From IMG/VR virus record IMGVR_UViG_2706794662_000014: DNA of 9,660 bases; one strand, 5' to 3'. Made by a program: the position numbers and the translations under genes. Positions 236 through 9,660 of the stretch are shown here, piece by piece. Every line of letters starts with the position of its first letter. Positions within the stretch are counted from its first letter, which is position 1. Below the pieces are notes generated by a model, which was not told where the DNA came from, searched no databases, and saw only the letters and a program-made list of their open reading frames with translations. The stretch is from a virus. Its lineage: Duplodnaviria; Heunggongvirae; Uroviricota; Caudoviricetes.

Positions 236-1318
236 TCATTTTCTCTGGCTGATCTTTACCGGATAACCATCCCGAAGATCAATTAAGTGCTCCGGTTCAG
301 AAGCAAACCATGCATAAGATCCCCACGCCAATTCTGGTATTGCCTTTTTAAAAGGCAGAGCACTTCTGTCCATAAATGCCGTAAGGAATGCAAGATTTTT
401 CTCGCTGAACCCAGCGTCAATAGCCAAATGAGTGAGAGTAACTTTTCGTTCCCTGTTTATAGGCCCATCTGTCGCAACTACTTCAGTGAAAACTACAAGC
501 ATGTCCGAACCCGTTCGGTCCTCTCCCAAATCAATCAAAATAATATCTGGAAGTGCTTTTGAGGCATCAATATTCAGCCCCAATGCTTTTGCCAATACAT
601 CATCCTGAGCAACAACTTTATTCCCGGATTCAGACAACCAGAGCACAGTTGGATTCTTAAGAAAATTAGGAGCAAAAACTTCGATGACGGCCTTAGCTAT
701 TGTACTTGACGGGCCCGGAGCTAAAGTTCTCTTCTCTCCATTTGGGAAAGTGACGACTACGGCATCAGCAGCAATCACTGCCCCTGATTTCAATAAACGC
801 AACCTAGCAAGAGCGGCTTTGTTCAAATGATTTTCTTGCCAGGAACTTATTGCACTCAGCAGCGAATCTCCTTCAAGCCCGGCATCAAAGAGTGCTGCAA
901 AAGAGCGATTCAAACTGTAACGAGGACGAGAGGATGTGGTGGGTATACCTTTACGCTCAACAATTGCATTGCAAGGTATTAGGCCATTTTTTATAGTTTC
1001 ATCACGTATTGGCTCACGCGTATTTTCCGCATACCATGCATCAGCAGGCCTTATCTTTTGTTTAGAGAAAGTCATCTTTACCCAGCTTTCTCTGGACGCA
1101 TCATCAGTAAGAGCAGCCTGCGAATCTCCCATACTTACAACCTGGCTGGGCCTTATCCATCGCCCCAGCCCCTCAACCGCACCAGCATAAAACATGACAA
1201 AAATTGTTTTTGCAGCTATTTCCCGAATTAAATATCCACGATTCTCAGTCCCTTCAGGGAAAATTAATTGTAATCTTTCCCGGATAACATTCAATGGGGG
1301 AACAACAGGCAGATTCAT
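236..1318 (-). CDS. Putative type II restriction endonuclease, PstI/BsuBI-like
   Basis: 360-codon ORF. ATG (1318-1316) overlaps the methyltransferase TGA stop (ATGA at 1315-1318), GGAG ~9-12 nt upstream. C-terminal segments LPDIILIDL...LVVFTEVVATDGPINRERK and AWGSYAWFASEPEHLI resemble my recollection of PstI-family enzymes (LPDVVVYD...LFLIEAVTSHGPISPKR). Position directly downstream of a methyltransferase. Family assignment is unverified recall. Confidence 0.6.
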   Translation of the reverse strand: MNLPVVPPLNVIRERLQLIFPEGTENRGYLIREIAAKTIFVMFYAGAVEGLGRWIRPSQVVSMGDSQAALTDDASRESWVKMTFSKQKIRPADAWYAENTREPIRDETIKNGLIPCNAIVERKGIPTTSSRPRYSLNRSFAALFDAGLEGDSLLSAISSWQENHLNKAALARLRLLKSGAVIAADAVVVTFPNGEKRTLAPGPSSTIAKAVIEVFAPNFLKNPTVLWLSESGNKVVAQDDVLAKALGLNIDASKALPDIILIDLGEDRTGSDMLVVFTEVVATDGPINRERKVTLTHLAIDAGFSEKNLAFLTAFMDRSALPFKKAIPELAWGSYAWFASEPEHLIDLRDGYPVKISQRK

Positions 1319-3147
1319 GCAATCATCACTCCATAGAAACCAGCGATAGTTCTCTCAATAATCCGTCTGTGGACGCCAGCATCAATTAACGATTGAATCT
1401 CCATCACCTGCTCCAGAGAAGGCAACGGGATTGAATTCAATTCATAGGCCGAAACAGCAACACTTCCGCTTATACACCTGAACGCCCGATCGACAACATG
1501 CGAATTAAGTAGCATATCAATAACATCAGGGCGAACCGCAGAGAACAATCCGTTTGAATATACAATATTAATATGGTTTTCAACTACTACGCCACCAGTT
1601 TCATCTATAAATCCCTGAGGTAAAATTGCCGCTAAAATCCTTCTGTCCTGTTCCTTCGATGTTGTCCGCTGAACAAGCACACATTCAGATTTTGTCACAA
1701 GGAAACCCTGTTGTGGGGTTATATCGATATAGGGAACATGATTTTTTCTGTCTGCACTAAAACGAAAACCAGCTGAAGTTATTGATTCCGCCCAGACTAA
1801 TGGGTAGCTATTTTTTCCTTTCGTCGTACGCAACTGCGACTTAAATCGATTCCAGACTAACTGACCTGTAGAGACTGAGTATCCCAGATCAGCTAAACGC
1901 GTAGACATCTGTTTTAATACATTAAGAAAACAGGCATCATCTTTAACGCGTGGCAAAAGCCACGTTGCTCCACCTTTTTCTATATCAACATTACCTATTT
2001 TCTCAATTTTTGCTTTGTTCAACCCCTTAGGGACAAGTGAGGATACCTGGGCCCGAACTTTATGTTCTCCCGCCTTGAATGCTGTCAACATTGTTTCCTG
2101 GAGAACATCGTCAAAGACCCCATCCCTGTCAGTGACGAAATCAAGGGCATACGGAGTAGTTTTTTCGGTCAAAAGGGTTCGCAGCGCGGTGAAATACTGC
2201 CCACCAAGAAAAGAAGTTGGCGTAAGAAATGCAATAACTCCTGTTTTCTCTTTAACCATGCGAACAGCTAAGTCGGTGAACAATCCATATAGATTTGCAT
2301 GACCAAATAACGAACGAGAATATTTTTCTCTCGTTTTAATATCGAGAGTGACACGTCCGTAAGGCGGATTCCCTACCACAAGATCATAACCAGAAAATTT
2401 ATCTTGCTGAAGCGCATCAGCAACAATAATTGTATCTTCAGGCAATCTACGTTTTACCTTTACACATAGTGGCATTAGTACAGATTCGAGCAATACCAAA
2501 CTCATCCAAGCCGCAAATGGATCGATTTCTATCCCCTTTAAACGACGACTGATTCTCCTCAACATCCATTCAGGGGAAGACCCCTTGTCTTTTTTTAACA
2601 TTCGAATGGCTACTGGTGCCAAAAATGCACCGCCACCACACGCAGGATCAATAACCGATGCATGAGAAAAATCAACACCAGACTTTTCAGCCAGGTCCAA
2701 GAGACGCGCTACCAAAGGTGGGGGGGTATAGTAAGCCCCCAATTCCGAACGGTAAGCGGATGGCAGCATTACCGTATAAATTGACCCAATCAGATATCCA
2801 GCGTCCTCCGCCGGAAATTGAGCAATAAGCTCACCTGTTCGTTCAGCGAGCTCGCGTGCATCACATGGAATGTCTTCTATGTAAACAGTGTGCGGTACTG
2901 CCCTCATTTTAATGCTGCTTTTTTGCTTTTTTGCAAGGGTATCCCAATATGCAGCTACGATGCTGAAGCAGTATGAGCGGGCATGCATCAACCTTGACTG
3001 CCCGGTTTTGTAATTGCCCGCATAACCTTTGGCCATGGCTTTACAAGTTTGATATCTTTCCAGATTAGAAAACTCATTATCTGTAAAAAAATCAAAATGT
3101 TGCACATTCATAATGTAAAATCCTAATGTATCAAACATGCGGGCCAT
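1315..3147 (-). CDS. N6-adenine (amino) DNA methyltransferase, gamma class, with large C-terminal target-recognition region
   Basis: 610-codon ORF. Motif X GAYYTPPPLV, motif I (AdoMet) VIDPACGGGAFL, motif IV VGNPPYG, in gamma-class order. About 330 aa follow motif IV. Start uncertain (ATG at 3147, 3138 or 3111). Confidence 0.85.
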   Translation of the reverse strand: MARMFDTLGFYIMNVQHFDFFTDNEFSNLERYQTCKAMAKGYAGNYKTGQSRLMHARSYCFSIVAAYWDTLAKKQKSSIKMRAVPHTVYIEDIPCDARELAERTGELIAQFPAEDAGYLIGSIYTVMLPSAYRSELGAYYTPPPLVARLLDLAEKSGVDFSHASVIDPACGGGAFLAPVAIRMLKKDKGSSPEWMLRRISRRLKGIEIDPFAAWMSLVLLESVLMPLCVKVKRRLPEDTIIVADALQQDKFSGYDLVVGNPPYGRVTLDIKTREKYSRSLFGHANLYGLFTDLAVRMVKEKTGVIAFLTPTSFLGGQYFTALRTLLTEKTTPYALDFVTDRDGVFDDVLQETMLTAFKAGEHKVRAQVSSLVPKGLNKAKIEKIGNVDIEKGGATWLLPRVKDDACFLNVLKQMSTRLADLGYSVSTGQLVWNRFKSQLRTTKGKNSYPLVWAESITSAGFRFSADRKNHVPYIDITPQQGFLVTKSECVLVQRTTSKEQDRRILAAILPQGFIDETGGVVVENHINIVYSNGLFSAVRPDVIDMLLNSHVVDRAFRCISGSVAVSAYELNSIPLPSLEQVMEIQSLIDAGVHRRIIERTIAGFYGVMIA

Positions 3148-3361: not shown

Positions 3362-3718
3362 TTATTCGGGGCTATATTTTGTCACCCTGCGTATCCGCGC
3401 TTTCGCATTACGCTCAATCTGGATTAGCTTTTCTATATTTTTTCGCCTTTCCCGCTCCTCCTGGCGCAAGAGCCTTACATCATCTGCCAGTCTGGTTTCT
3501 CTTTTCGCCACAGAGAGCATCCAGTCAAATGGCTCCACAACTGCACCGCAAATTTTACAGCGGACCTGACGCTCTTTTTCGTCAACCCGGACAGAAGCGT
3601 GATGGCAATATGGTCTTTCCGATGGCTCATAAAGAAAATTAACCTGATTACGAGGGTTATCCTCTTTTACCGGAAATAAAACAATATTGCTTAACTCATC
3701 TTCTGGTTTTATTTCCAT
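3362..3718 (-). CDS. Hypothetical prophage protein with Cys-rich zinc-ribbon-like motif and basic coiled-coil tail
   Basis: ORF track 3362..3775 starts at a non-ATG codon. Internal ATG at 3718 (MEIKPEDE...) has a strong RBS AGGAGAGGAG 5-8 nt upstream. Motif C-H-H x15 C-K-I-C; C-terminus rich in R/E/K. TAA stop at 3362-3364. Confidence 0.55.
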   Translation of the reverse strand: MEIKPEDELSNIVLFPVKEDNPRNQVNFLYEPSERPYCHHASVRVDEKERQVRCKICGAVVEPFDWMLSVAKRETRLADDVRLLRQEERERRKNIEKLIQIERNAKARIRRVTKYSPE

Positions 3719-5472: not shown

Positions 5473-5745
5473 GCACCTGATAANNNNNNNNNNNNNNNNN
5501 NNNNNNNNNNNNNNNNNNNNNNNNNNNNNNNNNNNNNNNNNNNNNNNNNNNNNNNNNNNNNNNNNNNNNNNNNNNNNNNNNNNNNNNNNNNNNNNNNNNN
5601 NNNNNNNNNNNNNNNNNNNNNNNNNNNNNNNNNNNNNNNNNNNNNNNNNNNNNNNNNNNNNNNNNNNNNNNNNNNNNNNNNNNNNNNNNNNNNNNNNNNN
5701 NNNNNNNNNNNNNNNNNNNNNNNNNNNNNNNNNNNNNNNNNNNNN
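5473..5745. other. Run of 273 N (assembly gap or masked sequence)
   Basis: Literal n characters in the sequence. It removes the 3' end of the O-like gene and the 5' end of the DnaC-like gene. Confidence 0.99.
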
Positions 5746-6722
5746 AACCAGGGGTTTTCAAAATTCCGGTCCGGCCCAAAAAACGTCGTCGCTCGCTGAA
5801 CAAATTCCGTTCCCGCTTTCCCGGTCGCCGCCAGGTATCTCGCGTAACGCCTCACACCATCCAGCATGGTCTCTGGTGGCACCCCCTCGCGCAATCTGGC
5901 CTTCCAGGCACTGAATGCGGATTTCTTCGGGTTTGCCCCGGCACGCAACGGGTATTCCCGCCAGACCTGTTCGAACACATCCGGATAATCCACTCGTCCC
6001 ACAGGCTGCCCGGTGTTTTCCGGGGCTACCCGATCGGCTTCCCGCTGAATGGCGGAATCGGCTTCAGGCTGCTGCAGTTGGAGTGATTGCTCCGGCCTTG
6101 CGGTCATCACCTGCTGCACAGCGCCCGAATCGGCTTTCAGCGCATACGCTGAATCGGCTTCCGGTGTCGAGCCTGCTGGCTGACCAGGATTGACGGTCTG
6201 AACATCCCCTGCCTGGTTCGTGGCGTTTTTTACGCCATGGACCATAGTGTTTTGATCTTCTTTATCTGTATCTTTATCTGTATCTGTCGTGACTCGTCGT
6301 GACATGTGCGTGACATTTCGTGACGCGCCGTGACAATCGCCATTTTGTTCCCGCTTTCTTTCCCTCTCTCGCTGCGCCCTCTTGCGCTCTGCAGGAGATT
6401 TTGCGGTTTGCGAAATATTGCCGTTGTCCTCTTTAAGCACCTGGCGTTTTTCCCATCCAGTGATTAAATCACCATCAAGTACCCGCCCCTGCATCGTCTG
6501 CAAAATTGAATCAATTACCTCTTCTGTCACGTCGAGCGCACTTGCCAAATCTTCTGTCGTGACATCAATGTGACCTCGCGTGACATTTCGTGACGCGCTC
6601 ACCAGGAGGTGGATATACACTGCCATCACTGTTGCAATTGGCTGCCCTGACACCCTGGCAATTGTTCGCCACTTAGGGTCATTTGGCATGTCATGCCATA
6701 ATCTGAGCCAGGCGTTAGCCAT
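5746..6722 (-). CDS. Phage replication initiation protein, O-like (YdaU-like), 3' end lost in N gap
   Basis: ATG 6722 (MANAWLRLW...) with RBS AGAGGTGA preferred over ORF-track GTG 6728. N-terminal HTH-like region, low-complexity acidic/Q-rich linker, C-terminal FEQVWREYP...KKSAFSAWKARL. Position between cII-position gene and DnaC-like loader; contains iteron arrays. Confidence 0.65.
6259..6334. repeat. Iteron array plus AT-rich 12-bp tandem repeat: candidate replication origin inside the O-like gene
   Basis: CGTGAC cores at 6288, 6298, 6309, 6319, 6329 (spacing 10-11 bp), preceded by TCTTTATCTGTA x2 (6259-6282). Confidence 0.6.
6523..6598. repeat. Second iteron-like cluster, in the N-terminal coding region of the O-like gene
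   Basis: CGTGAC at 6558, 6579, 6589; TGTGAC at 6569; inverted GTCACG at 6526-6531. The 21-mer GCGTGACATTTCGTGACGCGC at 6578-6598 is identical to 6308-6328. Confidence 0.55.
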
Positions 6723-6793: not shown

Positions 6794-7219
6794 TCAATGT
6801 ACTGCCACAGCATTTCCTGCCGGGCCACCACGGTTCATCTGATTGAAACCGGCGATTGCCACTGCGACAAAATCATCAGCGTCTCTCACCAGTCGTTCAT
6901 GCGTCTCCACCAGTTCCCGAAAATAAGCTGAACTGTGGCTGCGCATTCGAGCCACCAGCGGAGGTGGCATTGCCCTTTCGATCGCAGGTAACAACGCCTG
7001 AATTTTTTCAACAGCGTCAGGGGTGTCTTTATCCAGCCAACGGAAAATCTTTTGGGTGTTGAGATAAAGCGTGTTGTGCTTGCTGTCGTTATGCAGAACC
7101 GGAAACGTCATTCCCAGTTCGAAATAAACCCTGGTTATTTCAGCTGCCGGAACTTTTTCACCGTCCGGATGCGCCCAGGCTTTCATCGCCATGCGGATGT
7201 GTTCATGCTTGATTTTCAT
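6794..7219 (-). CDS. cII-position protein, possibly YdaT-like
   Basis: 141-codon ORF, ATG 7219-7217 overlapping the Cro-like stop (ATGA). Sits between cro-like and O-like genes. YdaT assignment is from synteny and vague recall only. Confidence 0.6.
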   Translation of the reverse strand: MKIKHEHIRMAMKAWAHPDGEKVPAAEITRVYFELGMTFPVLHNDSKHNTLYLNTQKIFRWLDKDTPDAVEKIQALLPAIERAMPPPLVARMRSHSSAYFRELVETHERLVRDADDFVAVAIAGFNQMNRGGPAGNAVAVH

Positions 7220-7479
7220 GAATCAACCCCCGCCGATGGTTGTGTGTTAGCCTGAAACTCAGCAGGCAAGCCGTCAGTTGGGTTGGGGTAGGTTTTACTG
7301 TCAATCTCATGTGGGGTCACCACCCATCCCGTTGCTTCACACCAACGTAATATTTTTTCTCCTGTAAGTTTTGCACGCCCCGTTATAACGTGGCTGACCA
7401 TCCCTTGGGATGCGCCAACAATCTCAGCAAATGAACTCTGGGTTATATGAAAATGATGCAAATATTCTCCAAGATTCAT
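7216..7479 (-). CDS. Cro-like HTH transcriptional regulator
   Basis: ORF track starts at TTG 7506; first ATG at 7479 (MNLGEYLHH...). HTH segment SSFAEIVGASQGMVSHVITGRAKL. Divergent from the repressor gene, downstream of the PR-like promoter. Confidence 0.7.
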   Translation of the reverse strand: MNLGEYLHHFHITQSSFAEIVGASQGMVSHVITGRAKLTGEKILRWCEATGWVVTPHEIDSKTYPNPTDGLPAEFQANTQPSAGVDS

Positions 7480-7513: not shown

Positions 7514-7542
7514 TTAATAGCACTGTTATTTTTAAAAGTAAA
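7514..7542 (-). promoter_or_regulatory. PR-like promoter for the cro-like operon
   Basis: On minus strand: -35 TTTACT (plus 7537-7542), 17-nt spacer, -10 TATTAA (plus 7514-7519); ~27-nt leader to ATG 7479. Confidence 0.45.
7516..7530. promoter_or_regulatory. Operator-like 15-bp palindromic site OR-a (AATAGCACTGTTATT)
   Basis: Half-sites AATAGC / AATAAC around a 3-bp centre; overlaps the PR-like -10. Member of a four-copy motif family. Confidence 0.6.
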
Positions 7543-7555
7543 TAGTGATGCTATT
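7541..7555. promoter_or_regulatory. Operator-like 15-bp palindromic site OR-b (AATAGTGATGCTATT)
   Basis: Centre 25 bp from OR-a; overlaps the PR-like -35 and abuts the PRM-like -35. Confidence 0.6.
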
Positions 7556-7583
7556 TCAAAGTGATTAGCAATCTTATTAGAAT
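7555..7583 (+). promoter_or_regulatory. PRM-like promoter for the repressor gene, possibly giving a leaderless transcript
   Basis: -35 TTCAAA (7555-7560), 17-nt spacer, -10 TAGAAT (7578-7583); predicted start ~7590, at the ATG (7591). No clear Shine-Dalgarno before ATG 7591. Confidence 0.4.
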
Positions 7584-7590
7584 TGGATGT

Positions 7591-8091
7591 ATGAAAAGAA
7601 AATCATTGTCAGACACCGACCTCAACGCCGCCAGAAGACTGAAAGAAATCTGGATGGCAAAGAAATCTCAGTTGGGATTGACTCAGGAACGTGCGGCGGA
7701 AATTATGGGGTTTTCAACACAAGGGGCGGTAAGTCACTACCTAAATGGTCAAACCCCACTAAACCTTGAGGCTGTTCTAAAGTTTGCTGGCTTACTGAAA
7801 GTTCCCCCTGAGTCAATCAGGCCAGACATGGTAGATTTGCTGCAAATTGCAAGGATGTATTGTCGAGAACCACAGCAAGATAACATAGTCGCATTACCAG
7901 CAGACACAGAACAAACAGAGGATGAACTACCGTTTGCCGTAGAGCCGATGGAACGAGATTTAATCCATACGTTCAGAGCTTTTCCGAAAGAAGATCAAGA
8001 ACACATGCTTCAGGAGATGAAAGATAAAAAAGAATCAATGGATCGTACGGTTGCGCGGTGGTTAGCTGCACAAAAAGGCCGTCGCGCCTAA
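7591..8091 (+). CDS. Prophage repressor, lambda cI N-terminal-domain-like HTH, no S24/LexA-type cleavage domain; possibly PaaR2-like regulator of the downstream toxin-antitoxin pair
   Basis: ATG 7591 (MKRKSLSDTDLNAARRLKEIW...) preferred over ORF-track GTG 7561. First ~80 aa parallel lambda cI as I recall it ([35 protein letters not shown] vs LSDTDLNAARRLKEIWMAKKSQLGLTQERAAEIMG). Total 166 aa; C-terminal half acidic with no Ser/Lys peptidase motifs. Confidence 0.75.
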   Translation: MKRKSLSDTDLNAARRLKEIWMAKKSQLGLTQERAAEIMGFSTQGAVSHYLNGQTPLNLEAVLKFAGLLKVPPESIRPDMVDLLQIARMYCREPQQDNIVALPADTEQTEDELPFAVEPMERDLIHTFRAFPKEDQEHMLQEMKDKKESMDRTVARWLAAQKGRRA

Positions 8092-8110
8092 ATCAGAGGA
8101 GATATGTAAA

Positions 8111-8305
8111 ATGAGTACAGTCCTTTCCCCAATGGTTTCAGAATTTGAGACAGTTGAGCAAGAAAATAGTTACAACGAATGGCTGCGGGCCAAAGTAGCA
8201 GCAAGCCTCGCGGATCCCCGCCCGGCGATTCCGCATGATGAGGTAATGGCGGAAATGGAACAAATTATTGCCCAAATTGCTGCTGCAACTCACAGAGGTG
8301 AATAA
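8111..8305 (+). CDS. paaA2: Type II antitoxin, PaaA2-like, partner of ParE-family toxin
   Basis: 64-codon ORF, RBS AGAGGAG (8095-8101) 9 nt before ATG, TAA stop overlapping the toxin ATG (TAATG at 8302-8307). Sequence LSPMVSEFETVEQENSYNEWLRAKVAASLADPRPAIPHDEV matches my recollection of PaaA2 from E. coli O157:H7; symbol is from memory. Confidence 0.7.
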   Translation: MSTVLSPMVSEFETVEQENSYNEWLRAKVAASLADPRPAIPHDEVMAEMEQIIAQIAAATHRGE

Positions 8306-8595
8306 TGTTACCCGTTTTATGGCTACCATCTGCTCGTGATGATTTGCGCCAGATCGTAGCCTACATAGCTAAAGAAAATCCCGCGGCAGCACGCAGAATG
8401 AAAATTCGAATTGAAACATCCGTTTTGCCGCTCACAGAGCATCCTTACCTGTATCCTCCAAGCGAGCGAGTTCTTGGTCTTCGTGAAATTGTAACTCATC
8501 CTAACTACATCATCCTTTACCGAGTAACAGCATCAAGCATAGAAGTAGTAAATATTGTGCATTCTCGAAGACAGTATCCAGGCAAAAACAGTTAA
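8305..8595 (+). CDS. parE: ParE/RelE-superfamily toxin (ParE2-like)
   Basis: 96 codons. Typical ParE pattern: MLPVLWLPSARDDLRQIVAYIA...PYLYPPSERVLGLREIVTHPNYIILYRV...IEVVNIVHSRR. Translationally coupled to the upstream antitoxin. Confidence 0.85.
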   Translation: MLPVLWLPSARDDLRQIVAYIAKENPAAARRMKIRIETSVLPLTEHPYLYPPSERVLGLREIVTHPNYIILYRVTASSIEVVNIVHSRRQYPGKNS

Positions 8596-8611
8596 TTATT
8601 CCCGCCGACAG

Positions 8612-8636
8612 AACCACCTTAGGGTGGTTTTTTCTT
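8612..8636 (+). terminator. Rho-independent terminator ending the repressor/toxin-antitoxin transcript
   Basis: Stem AACCACC (8612-8618), loop TTAG, stem GGTGGTT (8623-8629), then T-tract TTTTTCTT to 8636; 17 nt after the parE stop. Confidence 0.75.
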
Positions 8637-8651
8637 GCCCCAACAAAAAAC

Positions 8652-8666
8652 AATAGCGATGCTATT
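8652..8666. promoter_or_regulatory. Operator-like 15-bp palindromic site OL-a (AATAGCGATGCTATT)
   Basis: Perfect palindrome around a GAT centre; overlaps the -35 of the PL-like promoter. Confidence 0.6.
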
Positions 8667-8694
8667 TACATCAAAAAAATAATGATGCTATTGT
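8665..8694 (+). promoter_or_regulatory. PL-like early promoter
   Basis: -35 TTTACA (8665-8670), 18-nt spacer, -10 TATTGT (8689-8694); both hexamers overlapped by operator sites; sits just downstream of the terminator. Confidence 0.45.
8678..8692. promoter_or_regulatory. Operator-like 15-bp palindromic site OL-b (AATAATGATGCTATT)
   Basis: Centre 26 bp from OL-a; overlaps the -10 of the PL-like promoter. Confidence 0.6.
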
Positions 8695-8873
8695 TTCAGG
8701 CGTCAACCCTCCCCGCCCCACAGAATGCAGGGCAATACTTCGAGTTACCAGACAGTGGTCAGGGGTTAAGTAGCCAGCCCGAGGCGTAAGAACATGACGG
8801 CAGGGTTCAATCTTTAACTATGCAGCAGGTTTTTTGTTCCGCCACCCCGGCGTTAAGGGGAAATGAGGTCAGC

Positions 8874-9026
8874 ATGGATACTATCGATCTTGGCAACAAC
8901 GAATCTCTGGTGTGCGGCGTGTTCCCTAACCAGGATGGAACGTTTACCGCCATGACGTATACCAAAAGCAAAACGTTTAAAACCGAATCTGGCGCGCGTT
9001 GCTGGTTAGCCAGAAACACTGACTGA
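8874..9026 (+). CDS. Small hypothetical protein (50 aa), first gene after the PL-like promoter
   Basis: ATG 8874 with GAGG (8865-8868) 5 nt upstream is preferred over the ORF-track ATG 8820, which has no RBS. TGA stop overlaps the next start (TGATG). One Cys pair, no recognisable motif. Confidence 0.45.
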   Translation: MDTIDLGNNESLVCGVFPNQDGTFTAMTYTKSKTFKTESGARCWLARNTD

Positions 9027-9403
9027 TGAGGCTGACGATGGAATTTAAAGATTTACCGTCTGATGTACAGAAAACAGCAGCTCATACATTGCATTCTGTG
9101 CTGCGAGAAATCGGGAAAGATATTGCAAGCGAGCCAGCAAAAGATCTGGCCCGGAAAATCAAGACCGCTTTCGTTGAGCTTTATAATGTTGGCACTGACT
9201 CTGAAACTGTCGAGACCAAGACCGTAAGTTCACCAATATTCTCACTTGAGCCAAGCGTATTATCAGGTGAAATATGCACCGAGATTTCCAGCGAACTGCT
9301 TCCGGTAATACGAGAAGCAATTCGCCGTCGCGGTTTGGATGGAAGTTATGATCATGACGTTCTGCAAGTTCTCAGGACAATGGTGACTTCACTGGGGATT
9401 TGA
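9026..9403 (+). CDS. Hypothetical protein (125 aa; or 121 aa from ATG 9038)
   Basis: ATG 9026 overlaps the upstream stop; alternative ATG 9038 has GAGG (9028-9031) 6 nt upstream. Acidic, helical-looking; not arginine-rich as lambda N would be. Confidence 0.5.
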   Translation: MRLTMEFKDLPSDVQKTAAHTLHSVLREIGKDIASEPAKDLARKIKTAFVELYNVGTDSETVETKTVSSPIFSLEPSVLSGEICTEISSELLPVIREAIRRRGLDGSYDHDVLQVLRTMVTSLGI

Positions 9404-9535
9404 TCCCTGCGTCCTCTAAGCTTTTGATATAGCGGTCCTCCAAGAAGCGGTAAATTTTGTCGAAATCATCTTTTCCCTCTGGTTTATTCAGAGGATTACA
9501 GGACCCGTAAGTAGCGGCATACATTTCAACCGTTT

Positions 9536-9660
9536 GGTAATGACTCCAACTTATTGATAGTGTTTTATGTTCAGATAATGCCCGATGACTTTGTCATGCA
9601 GCTCCACCGATTTTGAGAACGACAGCGACTTCCGTCCCAGCCGTGCCAGGTGCTGCCTCA
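9536..9660 (-). mobile_element. IS1 insertion sequence, partial (right inverted-repeat end; element continues right of the window)
   Basis: 9536-9660 reads as the reverse complement of the last ~125 nt of IS1 as I recall it (GGTAATGACTCCAACTTATTGATAGTGTTTTATGTTCAGATAATG...). insB 3' end on the minus strand, TAA at 9551-9553. Same orientation as the copy at 1-83. Confidence 0.9.

Follow-up and report, generated by a model that had tools for sequence, protein, structure and literature searches.

Candidate operators of a lambdoid immunity switch in an Escherichia coli/Shigella prophage

Palindromic sites in the early region

The stretch of DNA investigated here, 9,660 nucleotides (nt) of the IMG/VR virus record IMGVR_UViG_2706794662_000014 (Caudoviricetes) and referred to as the window throughout, is by its gene content the early/immunity region of a lambdoid prophage from E. 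coli/Shigella, of the same kind as CP-933P. The order of its features is ydaT, a cro-like gene, a right operator region (OR), the repressor gene, the pair paaA-parE, a terminator, a left operator region with the leftward promoter (OL/PL) and ydfA. An identical repressor sequence is recorded from Shigella sonnei, and E. coli RMDEC465 holds a segment that is 98% identical. Three related palindromic sites are found between the divergent cro-like gene (7216-7479) and repressor gene (start 7591), and two more follow the terminator. These five sites are very probably the operators of a lambdoid immunity switch consisting of a repressor and a Cro-like partner.

Four sites of 15 bp in the window fitted the consensus A(A/T)TAGCA-N-TGCTA(A/T)T. 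It is palindromic (7+1+7), the half-site being A(A/T)TAGCA, and every site in the window contained at least one perfect half-site. All four were found exactly where an initial annotation of the sequence had placed them. The OR1-like operator AATAGCACTGTTATT occupies 7516-7530 (18.7 bits with the weight matrix described below), the same position as in the eight lineages compared, and the OR2-like operator AATAGTGATGCTATT occupies 7541-7555 (19.2 bits), 25 bp from OR1 in 8/8 lineages. The distal, OL2-like operator AATAGCGATGCTATT is located at 8652-8666 (20.6 bits) and the proximal, OL1-like operator AATAATGATGCTATT at 8678-8692 (17.1 bits). The centres, proposed to be 25-26 bp apart within each pair, were 25 bp apart for OR1-OR2 and 26 bp apart for the OL pair. 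A degenerate third site had been proposed at 7566-7580, in a continued 25-bp register. The site itself is real, a weak OR3-like operator ATTAGCAATCTTATT with 13.7 bits and rank 5 in the window, but its position is 7564-7578 and its centre lies 23 bp from that of OR2, out of the proposed register. In the eight lineages it is conserved as ATTAG...(C/T)TATT or CAAAT, 23-24 bp from OR2.

The over-representation of the motif was evident by several counts. With three or fewer mismatches to the consensus of the initial annotation, the window gave 6 strand-matches against 0.51 expected, a number reached by 0/200 shuffled sequences, and the frame AATA-N7-TATT was matched 4 times against 0.13 expected. 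A weight matrix with an information content of 16.7 bits was made from 29 sites in six lineages that included neither the window nor its close relatives. The five best matches to this matrix in the window were those starting at 8652, 7541, 7516, 8678 and 7564, and the next best, starting at 3423, scored 7.2 bits. Shuffled windows displayed 0.07 matches of at least 13.7 bits per window with the same matrix. The motif had been expected to be restricted to these loci. In the DNA scanned, the same five sites were the sole matches in a near-identical 17.8-kb prophage segment, and 148 kb of unrelated or heteroimmune control DNA yielded one match of at least 12 bits.

The variation within the sites was counted among E. 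coli relatives approximately 80% identical in DNA. None of the columns for the outer four arm positions varied (0/32), whereas 14/28 central columns did (Fisher p = 2.3e-6).

Promoters, repressor and Cro-like protein

The sites are interlocked with three predicted promoters. The rightward promoter (PR) was identified by hand on the minus strand at 7514-7542, with the -35 hexamer TTTACT (7542-7537), a 17-nt spacer and the TG-n extended -10 hexamer TATTAA (7519-7514), and would drive the cro-like gene, ydaT and the replication genes. Read on the minus strand, the final two bases of OR2 are the first of its -35, and the final four of OR1 are the first of its -10. The consensus promoter scan missed PR because this -10 ends in A. 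The same construction, TT[T/G]AC. followed by 17 nt and TATTAA or TAATAT, was present in 7/8 lineages. The leftward promoter PL was predicted by the consensus scan on the plus strand at 8665-8694, with the -35 TTTACA (8665-8670), an 18-nt spacer and the TG-n extended -10 TATTGT (8689-8694), and would drive ydfA and the downstream early-left genes. Its -35 starts with the last 2 nt of the OL2-like site and its -10 with the last 4 nt of the OL1-like site, and other lineages have the canonical -35 TTGAC(A/T/C) in this design.

The promoter for repressor maintenance (PRM), also predicted by the consensus scan, lies on the plus strand at 7555-7583 with the -35 TTCAAA, a 17-nt spacer and the -10 TAGAAT. 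The -35 overlaps OR2 by 1 nt, and the OR3-like site is placed inside the spacer. The proposed overlap of the third site with this -10 holds to the extent that the site touches TAGAAT (7578-7583), but by one base only; what it does is fill the spacer. Likewise, each site overlaps a -35 or -10 hexamer as had been claimed, but the distal sites do so by only 1-2 nt. The overlap is a matter of predicted hexamers whose arrangement relative to the operators is conserved in 8 lineages. The -10 of PRM ends 7 nt before the ATG at 7591, and the repressor mRNA is for that reason probably leaderless; in the compared relatives TAGAAT or TAAAAT was located 6-7 nt before the ATG.

The geometry of OR was nearly fixed across the 8 lineages. 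OR1 and OR2 were always 25 bp apart and OR2 and OR3 23-24 bp, and the centres of OR2 and OR3 were found 42-43 nt and 19-20 nt before the repressor ATG, the values for the window being 43 and 20. The distance between OL and OR in the window is 1136 bp. A search of IMG/VR with the composite pattern 'site-TTKAC-gap-site' gave 72 stretches, of which 35 had matches on both strands, 1123-1135 bp apart. These pairs correspond to the predicted PR and PL facing outward. The 166-aa repressor was encoded in 39 of the stretches from this search.

The second pair of sites had been placed just after a terminator, and a 9-bp hairpin followed by a T-run was in fact detected at approximately 8610-8637 on the plus strand, ahead of the site at 8652 (folding free energy -15.1 kcal/mol, z -2.9). 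It is the predicted intrinsic terminator of the repressor-paaA-parE operon and is kept in relatives. A promoter-like sequence on the minus strand, TTGACG-16-CATTAT (8706-8679), runs over the proximal OL site toward the terminator; its -10 is not conserved in relatives and it was discarded as probably due to chance.

PR and PL are built on one template, and the likeness of the sites might in principle be that of two paralogous AT-rich promoters, with no selection for protein binding. The good conservation of the whole OR region among close relatives, spacers included, would suit such an origin as well. Each site is, however, internally palindromic, which promoter function does not need, and the arms were invariant while the centres drifted. 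Furthermore, the third site is outside any duplicated promoter and the motif changes blockwise with the helix-turn-helix (HTH) domain, as described in the next section. We regard a shared promoter ancestry as a very improbable explanation of the sites, compared with their being protein-binding operators.

The repressor, for which the initial annotation had rightly chosen the open reading frame (ORF) at 7591-8091 on the plus strand, is a protein of 166 aa with an HTH domain (residues 1-91), a linker (92-111) and a helical C-terminal domain (119-166). Pfam detected only HTH_3 and HTH_31, and no S24 peptidase domain was found. The N-terminal 81-90 residues are homologous to the domain by which lambda CI binds DNA (phmmer against PDB 1lmb, E 2.9e-9), and the predicted structure matched crystal structures of the lambda cI N-terminal domain with a Foldseek target TM-score of 0.85-0.93 and a root-mean-square deviation of 1.0-2.3 A. 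In the model the linker 92-111 is disordered and followed by two helices, 119-129 and 133-165. The last 44 aa are 52% identical to PaaR2 of CP-933P (E 5e-15), whereas the DNA-binding domain did not align with PaaR2. The last 64 aa are 56% identical to PaaR1 of Sp4/CP-933M, and a weaker similarity was seen between the C-terminal segment and the C-terminus of DicA (29% identity, E 2e-6). From these alignments the repressor is a chimera of a lambda-CI-like N-terminal domain and a PaaR2-like C-terminal domain. It was rejected as PaaR2 or PaaR1 itself, as only the C-terminal 44-64 aa align; PaaR1 is moreover a protein of 133 aa with other operators.

The HTH region of the repressor was invariant in the E. 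coli relatives that are about 80% identical in DNA. Residues E33 and E37 align with E34 and D38 of lambda CI, which are the positive-control residues of that protein. Since the repressor has no S24 domain, direct RecA-mediated induction would not be expected; short repressors related to it are inactivated by antirepressors (PMC10448788).

The Cro-like protein (87 aa, 7216-7479, minus strand; Pfam HTH_3, E 4e-4) would be the functional analogue of YdaS and Cro. It gave no alignment with YdaS of CP-933P and was 54-83% identical across all loci with the operator type of the window. The predicted recognition helices, TQGAVSHYLNG in the repressor and SQGMVSHVITG in the Cro-like protein, have the motif QG(A/M)VSH in common.

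Operators and DNA-binding domains in related loci

Relatives of the locus were gathered by protein search, gene context, a scan of representative genomes and annotated genomes. Every locus with an N-terminal domain of the window type (TQGAVSHYLNG or TQGAVSQYLNG) also encoded a homologous Cro (SQGMVSHV helix), and contained sites of the form A(A/T)TAG-N5-CTA(A/T)T in two places, one separating cro from the repressor gene and the other beyond the repressor operon's last gene. This co-occurrence was seen in E. coli, Salmonella diarizonae, Citrobacter, Providencia and metagenomic contigs. The distance from OR to OL varied from 0.9 to 3.0 kb depending on the cargo, and the placement of the operators was unchanged. 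In loci with another HTH (CP-933P, Sp4, the 132-aa P0042 type and Qin) no sites of the window type were found, and other repeats occupied the same positions. The motif thus changes as a block when the HTH changes.

The C-terminal part of the repressor and the cargo differed among these loci. In E. coli of the window type a PaaR-type C-terminal part goes with paaA-parE, and in Salmonella diarizonae the C-terminal segment aligns with the PaaR/DicA-type domain and the cargo is higBA. A second HTH and a PaaR-type domain are present in the metagenomic contigs L015/L016, which have no cargo, in L017/L018, which carry a hipA-like pair with OL 3.0 kb from OR, and in Citrobacter braakii, where two OL-type sites lie approximately 0.2 kb past the repressor stop. 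Providencia displayed a classical LexA/S24 domain, no cargo and an OL 0.89 kb from OR. In the tandem-HTH repressors (240-255 aa; L015-L018, L020; P0013-P0023), the window-type HTH is followed by an HTH like that of the 132-aa PaaR type and then by the PaaR C-terminal domain, and their loci show window-type operators. A window-type N-terminal domain joined to a LexA/S24-like C-terminal domain was observed in Providencia (L022-L024) and Uliginosibacterium (L021). By its domain composition the Providencia form exemplifies a shuffling of domains among cleavable and non-cleavable repressors, with operators and PR/PL design unchanged. Uliginosibacterium, whose N-terminal domain is 60% identical, had one matching site only and was not used as a comparison locus.

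The genes between the two sets of sites are a PaaA-type antitoxin (8111-8305, plus strand; Pfam PaaA2, PF21217, E 3e-23) and a ParE-type toxin (8305-8595, plus strand; Pfam ParE_toxin, PF05016, E 1.8e-17). As the sites flank a toxin-antitoxin operon, the repeats could be read as the autoregulatory operator of paaA-parE, bound by the antitoxin-toxin complex as in type II systems. PaaA-type antitoxins are, however, without a DNA-binding domain (PMC8630535), and the same operators in the same geometry persist in loci with higBA, a hipA-like gene or no cargo in place of paaA-parE. Toxin-antitoxin autoregulation was therefore rejected, and of the explanations weighed here it is the one with the least credit.

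That the sites are read only by the Cro-like protein or by another factor, the 166-aa protein acting elsewhere or not being the repressor here, would also fit the comparative data, which cannot tell the two proteins apart as Cro and repressor co-occur at every locus. Several observations nevertheless make it improbable. The N-terminal domain of the repressor is a clear homologue of the lambda CI DNA-binding domain, and the QG(A/M)VSH motif held in common with the Cro-like protein is what would be expected if both read the same half-site. The repressor gene is in the position of cI and dicA and its start keeps a distance of 42-43 nt from the centre of OR2, and in CP-933P the repressor and the Cro analogue both footprint the same region.

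A switch in which both proteins use the five operators is thus preferred. As we infer it, from binding and the order of occupancy to promoter start sites, PRM activation and looping, it would work as follows. Dimers of the 166-aa repressor, and at other times dimers of the 87-aa Cro-like protein, would read the half-site A(A/T)TAGCA by an HTH of the lambda CI type. In the lysogen, repressor at OR1 and OR2 would cover the -10 and -35 of PR and keep the cro-like gene, ydaT and the replication genes silent. Repressor at OL1 and OL2 would in the same way cover the -10 and -35 of PL and silence ydfA and the early-left genes, which in intact relatives include that of the division inhibitor dicB. At OR2, centred 43 nt before the start of the presumed leaderless mRNA, the repressor would be placed to activate PRM as lambda CI does, and the weak OR3-like site may serve to shut off PRM at a high repressor level or under Cro. 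Cro would use the same sites, and YdaT would act through an operator of its own, located where the cro-like gene and ydaT meet. The helical domain at the C-terminus, with its homology to PaaR2, might provide cooperativity of neighbouring dimers and possibly an OL-OR loop over 1.1 kb. Looping over the 1136 bp is plausible because the homologous domain belongs to PaaR2, cited as an octamer in solution (PMC8630535).

Some points weigh against this scheme. Even for PaaR2, what is cited is an octamer in solution and not a loop. With a spacing of 25-26 bp, adjacent dimers sit on almost opposite sides of the helix, so that their cooperativity would need a flexible linker, such as the one of 20 residues predicted by the model. 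Binding by repressor and by Cro is inseparable by sequence because the two proteins always co-occur. The proposed -10 of PR, TATTAA, is without the usual final T, and the consensus promoter scan was overall not significant (4 found against 2.8 +/- 1.4 expected). The claim of the initial annotation that the locus follows lambda OR/OL logic with a different operator sequence is nonetheless supported by how the genes are ordered, by the geometry of the promoters and by the comparative data.

The flanks of the locus (YdaT and the PL leader) are shared with CP-933P, the repressor DNA-binding domain and Cro are not, and on this ground the block that begins at the cro-like gene, takes in OR and the repressor DNA-binding domain and ends at OL is considered a swapped heteroimmune cassette in a conserved frame. 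One may go further and propose that DNA-binding domain, Cro and operators form one portable specificity cassette, joined to at least three control modules: LexA-type cleavable (Providencia), short PaaR/DicA-type (the window) and tandem second HTH (Citrobacter and metagenomic contigs), with the PaaR-type domain alone supplying both pairwise and loop cooperativity. This extended proposal is tentative, and we consider it rather doubtful as a whole. If it were true, phages of one immunity type would differ in their mode of induction, and a repressor with tandem HTH domains might repress two immunity types simultaneously.

The immunity type appears to be previously undescribed, its architecture being known from lambda, Qin and CP-933P. 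The literature collection searched contained no mention of the operator strings, and a megablast search of deposited phages matched only the PL leader and ydfA. By tblastn against deposited phages, no N-terminal domain was above 60% identity, the best being those of Rac-SA53 (57%) and of a Stx2-phage CI (52%). As for its frequency, thousands of assemblies are indexed for the relative that has the most records in the protein collection (78% identical), and most of the queried stretch is present in 72 complete E. coli genomes. What is provided here is a precise map of candidate operators for an immunity type common in E. coli/Shigella prophages, one in which the repressor would control the ParE toxin and, in intact relatives, also DicB. 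That one DNA-binding specificity goes together with different domains for oligomerisation or induction makes for a natural comparison. Of greater interest, as a by-product, is the cassette of DNA-binding domain, Cro and operator found with three C-terminal architectures. The current understanding of lambdoid switches is unchanged by these findings.

Flanking genes and known immunity systems

Next to the cro-like gene, YdaT, the CII analogue, is encoded on the minus strand at 6794-7219 and is 77% identical to YdaT of CP-933P. The high-affinity YdaT operator (OM) was defined by footprinting as TTGATT-N6-AATCAA (PMC9986795), and an exact match, TTGATTTTCATGAATCAA, was detected at 7209-7226, across the point where the cro-like gene ends and ydaT starts. 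Because this exact published operator spans the junction of the two genes, the PRE-like control (after the promoter for repressor establishment) of CP-933P is probably retained in the window. Past ydaT, the minus strand holds replication genes, including one for a DnaC/IstB-like ATPase, together with DUF1627 and DUF977 genes. At approximately 5480-5780 a run of N hides the boundary of the O-like replication gene with that for the DnaC/IstB-like protein, and ORFs across it are unreliable. At the distal end of the early-right region are a gene for a BsuBI/PstI-type restriction endonuclease (236-1318, minus strand) and, beside it, one for an Eco57I/N6-adenine-type methyltransferase (1315-3147, minus strand).

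On the other side, the PL leader (8703-8873, plus strand) is conserved among heteroimmune prophages, and the immunity-specific DNA ends just upstream of it. It is followed by ydfA (DUF1391; 8874-9026, plus strand), the first gene of the PL operon according to the annotation of near-identical loci. The sequence from approximately 8703 to ydfA is common to the window, CP-933P, Sp4 and a fourth type. This leader of approximately 170 nt is nearly identical in the four heteroimmune types, and Qin of K-12 is without most of it. Further copies were located at 3987-4145 in L012, at approximately 7350-7185 (minus strand) in L037 and at approximately 3000-3175 in L039. No Rfam family matched the leader at the gathering score, with weak chance-level matches at E up to 1, and its folding energy was no better than that of shuffled sequences (z +0.86). 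The leader may serve as a joint for recombination, or as a signal for processing or antitermination.

An ORF of 125 aa without a Pfam match (9026-9403) follows ydfA in the place where relatives have ydfB and ydfC. In intact relatives the operon beyond ydfA runs on to dicB and an exonuclease gene. In the window, the end of an IS1 insertion element (approximately 9531-9660), 98.5% identical to plasmid IS1A copies and running off the window, interrupts the PL operon after the 125-aa ORF, and dicB and the other distal genes of relatives are thereby displaced or lost.

Two of the heteroimmune loci revealed repeats of their own. In Sp4 of O157:H7 Sakai these are ACAATAAAAAACTGT / ACAGTTTTTTATTGT at OR and PL (L037, 8360-8480 and 7340-7420), and in the P0042 type they are CACTTTTAAAGTTAGCT-like, also at OR and PL (L039, 1880-2004 and 2940-3010). 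They are candidate operators of PaaR1 and of the 132-aa type, respectively.

In CP-933P of E. coli O157:H7, PaaR2, YdaS and YdaT are analogues of CI, Cro and CII (PMC8630535). The promoters PR, PRM and PL, the operators OR1-3 and OL1-3 and a leaderless paaR2 mRNA were defined in the same study (Jurenas et al. 2021, PMC8630535), which further reported footprints of PaaR2 and YdaS on the intergenic region, repression of PR and PL by these proteins, and activation of PRM by PaaR2 at low level. The window resembles CP-933P in the gene order ydaT, cro analogue, OR, repressor, paaA, parE, OL/PL and conserved leader, in a -10 placed for a leaderless repressor mRNA, in a second operator set right after the toxin-antitoxin genes, and in the same YdaT operator (Prolic-Kalinsek et al. 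2023, PMC9986795) with a 77% identical YdaT. The predicted PL corresponds to PL933P of CP-933P as well as to dicBp of Qin. The two differ in the repressor's DNA-binding domain, that of PaaR2 being unrelated and that of the window lambda-CI-like, and in the operators, which in CP-933P are repeats of the GTTTAGTAA type (GTTTAGT type); no matches to the window motif were found in the CP-933P locus. Two clear OL sites are present in the window, against three proposed in CP-933P. Since repressor DNA-binding domain, Cro analogue and operators all differ, the two prophages are judged to be heteroimmune.

With Qin of E. coli K-12 (DicA/DicC/dicBp) the window has in common a short non-cleavable repressor, a related C-terminal segment and ydfA after PL, and the arrangement dicC-dicA-dicBp (PMC10448788) corresponds to that of the window. 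The Qin operators are found between the divergent genes and again at the ydfA...dicB promoter (PMC10448788, PMC3441716). Unlike the repressor of the window, DicA has another HTH and other operators, and no toxin-antitoxin pair is inserted between dicA and dicBp.

Lambda and the window have in common a homologous repressor N-terminal domain, a tripartite OR and a cargo operon that separates the repressor gene from a terminator, with OL/PL coming next. In lambda, the OR sites are spaced by 24 and 23 bp, the centre of OR2 is at -42 relative to PRM and the cI mRNA is leaderless. The geometry of the window, with spacings of 25/23 bp and an OR2 centre at about -43 of the predicted PRM, is practically that of lambda. 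The repressor of the window differs from CI in having no S24 autocleavage domain and in its oligomerisation module, which is short, helical and of the PaaR/DicA type. The operator is 15 bp compared to 17 bp of another sequence in lambda, OL consists of two sites, and YdaT is the CII analogue. The OL-OR distance is about 2.4 kb in lambda, whereas it is 1.1 kb in the window.

Finally, the same DNA-binding domain was found in repressors of the Providencia and Rac-SA53 type. These differ from that of the window by a LexA/S24 domain in Providencia and by the size of the protein, 153 aa, in Rac-SA53, and both loci are without paaA-parE. In common with it they have an identical or closely related recognition helix, the 15-bp operator family, the 25/23 register and the PR/PL construction of the window.

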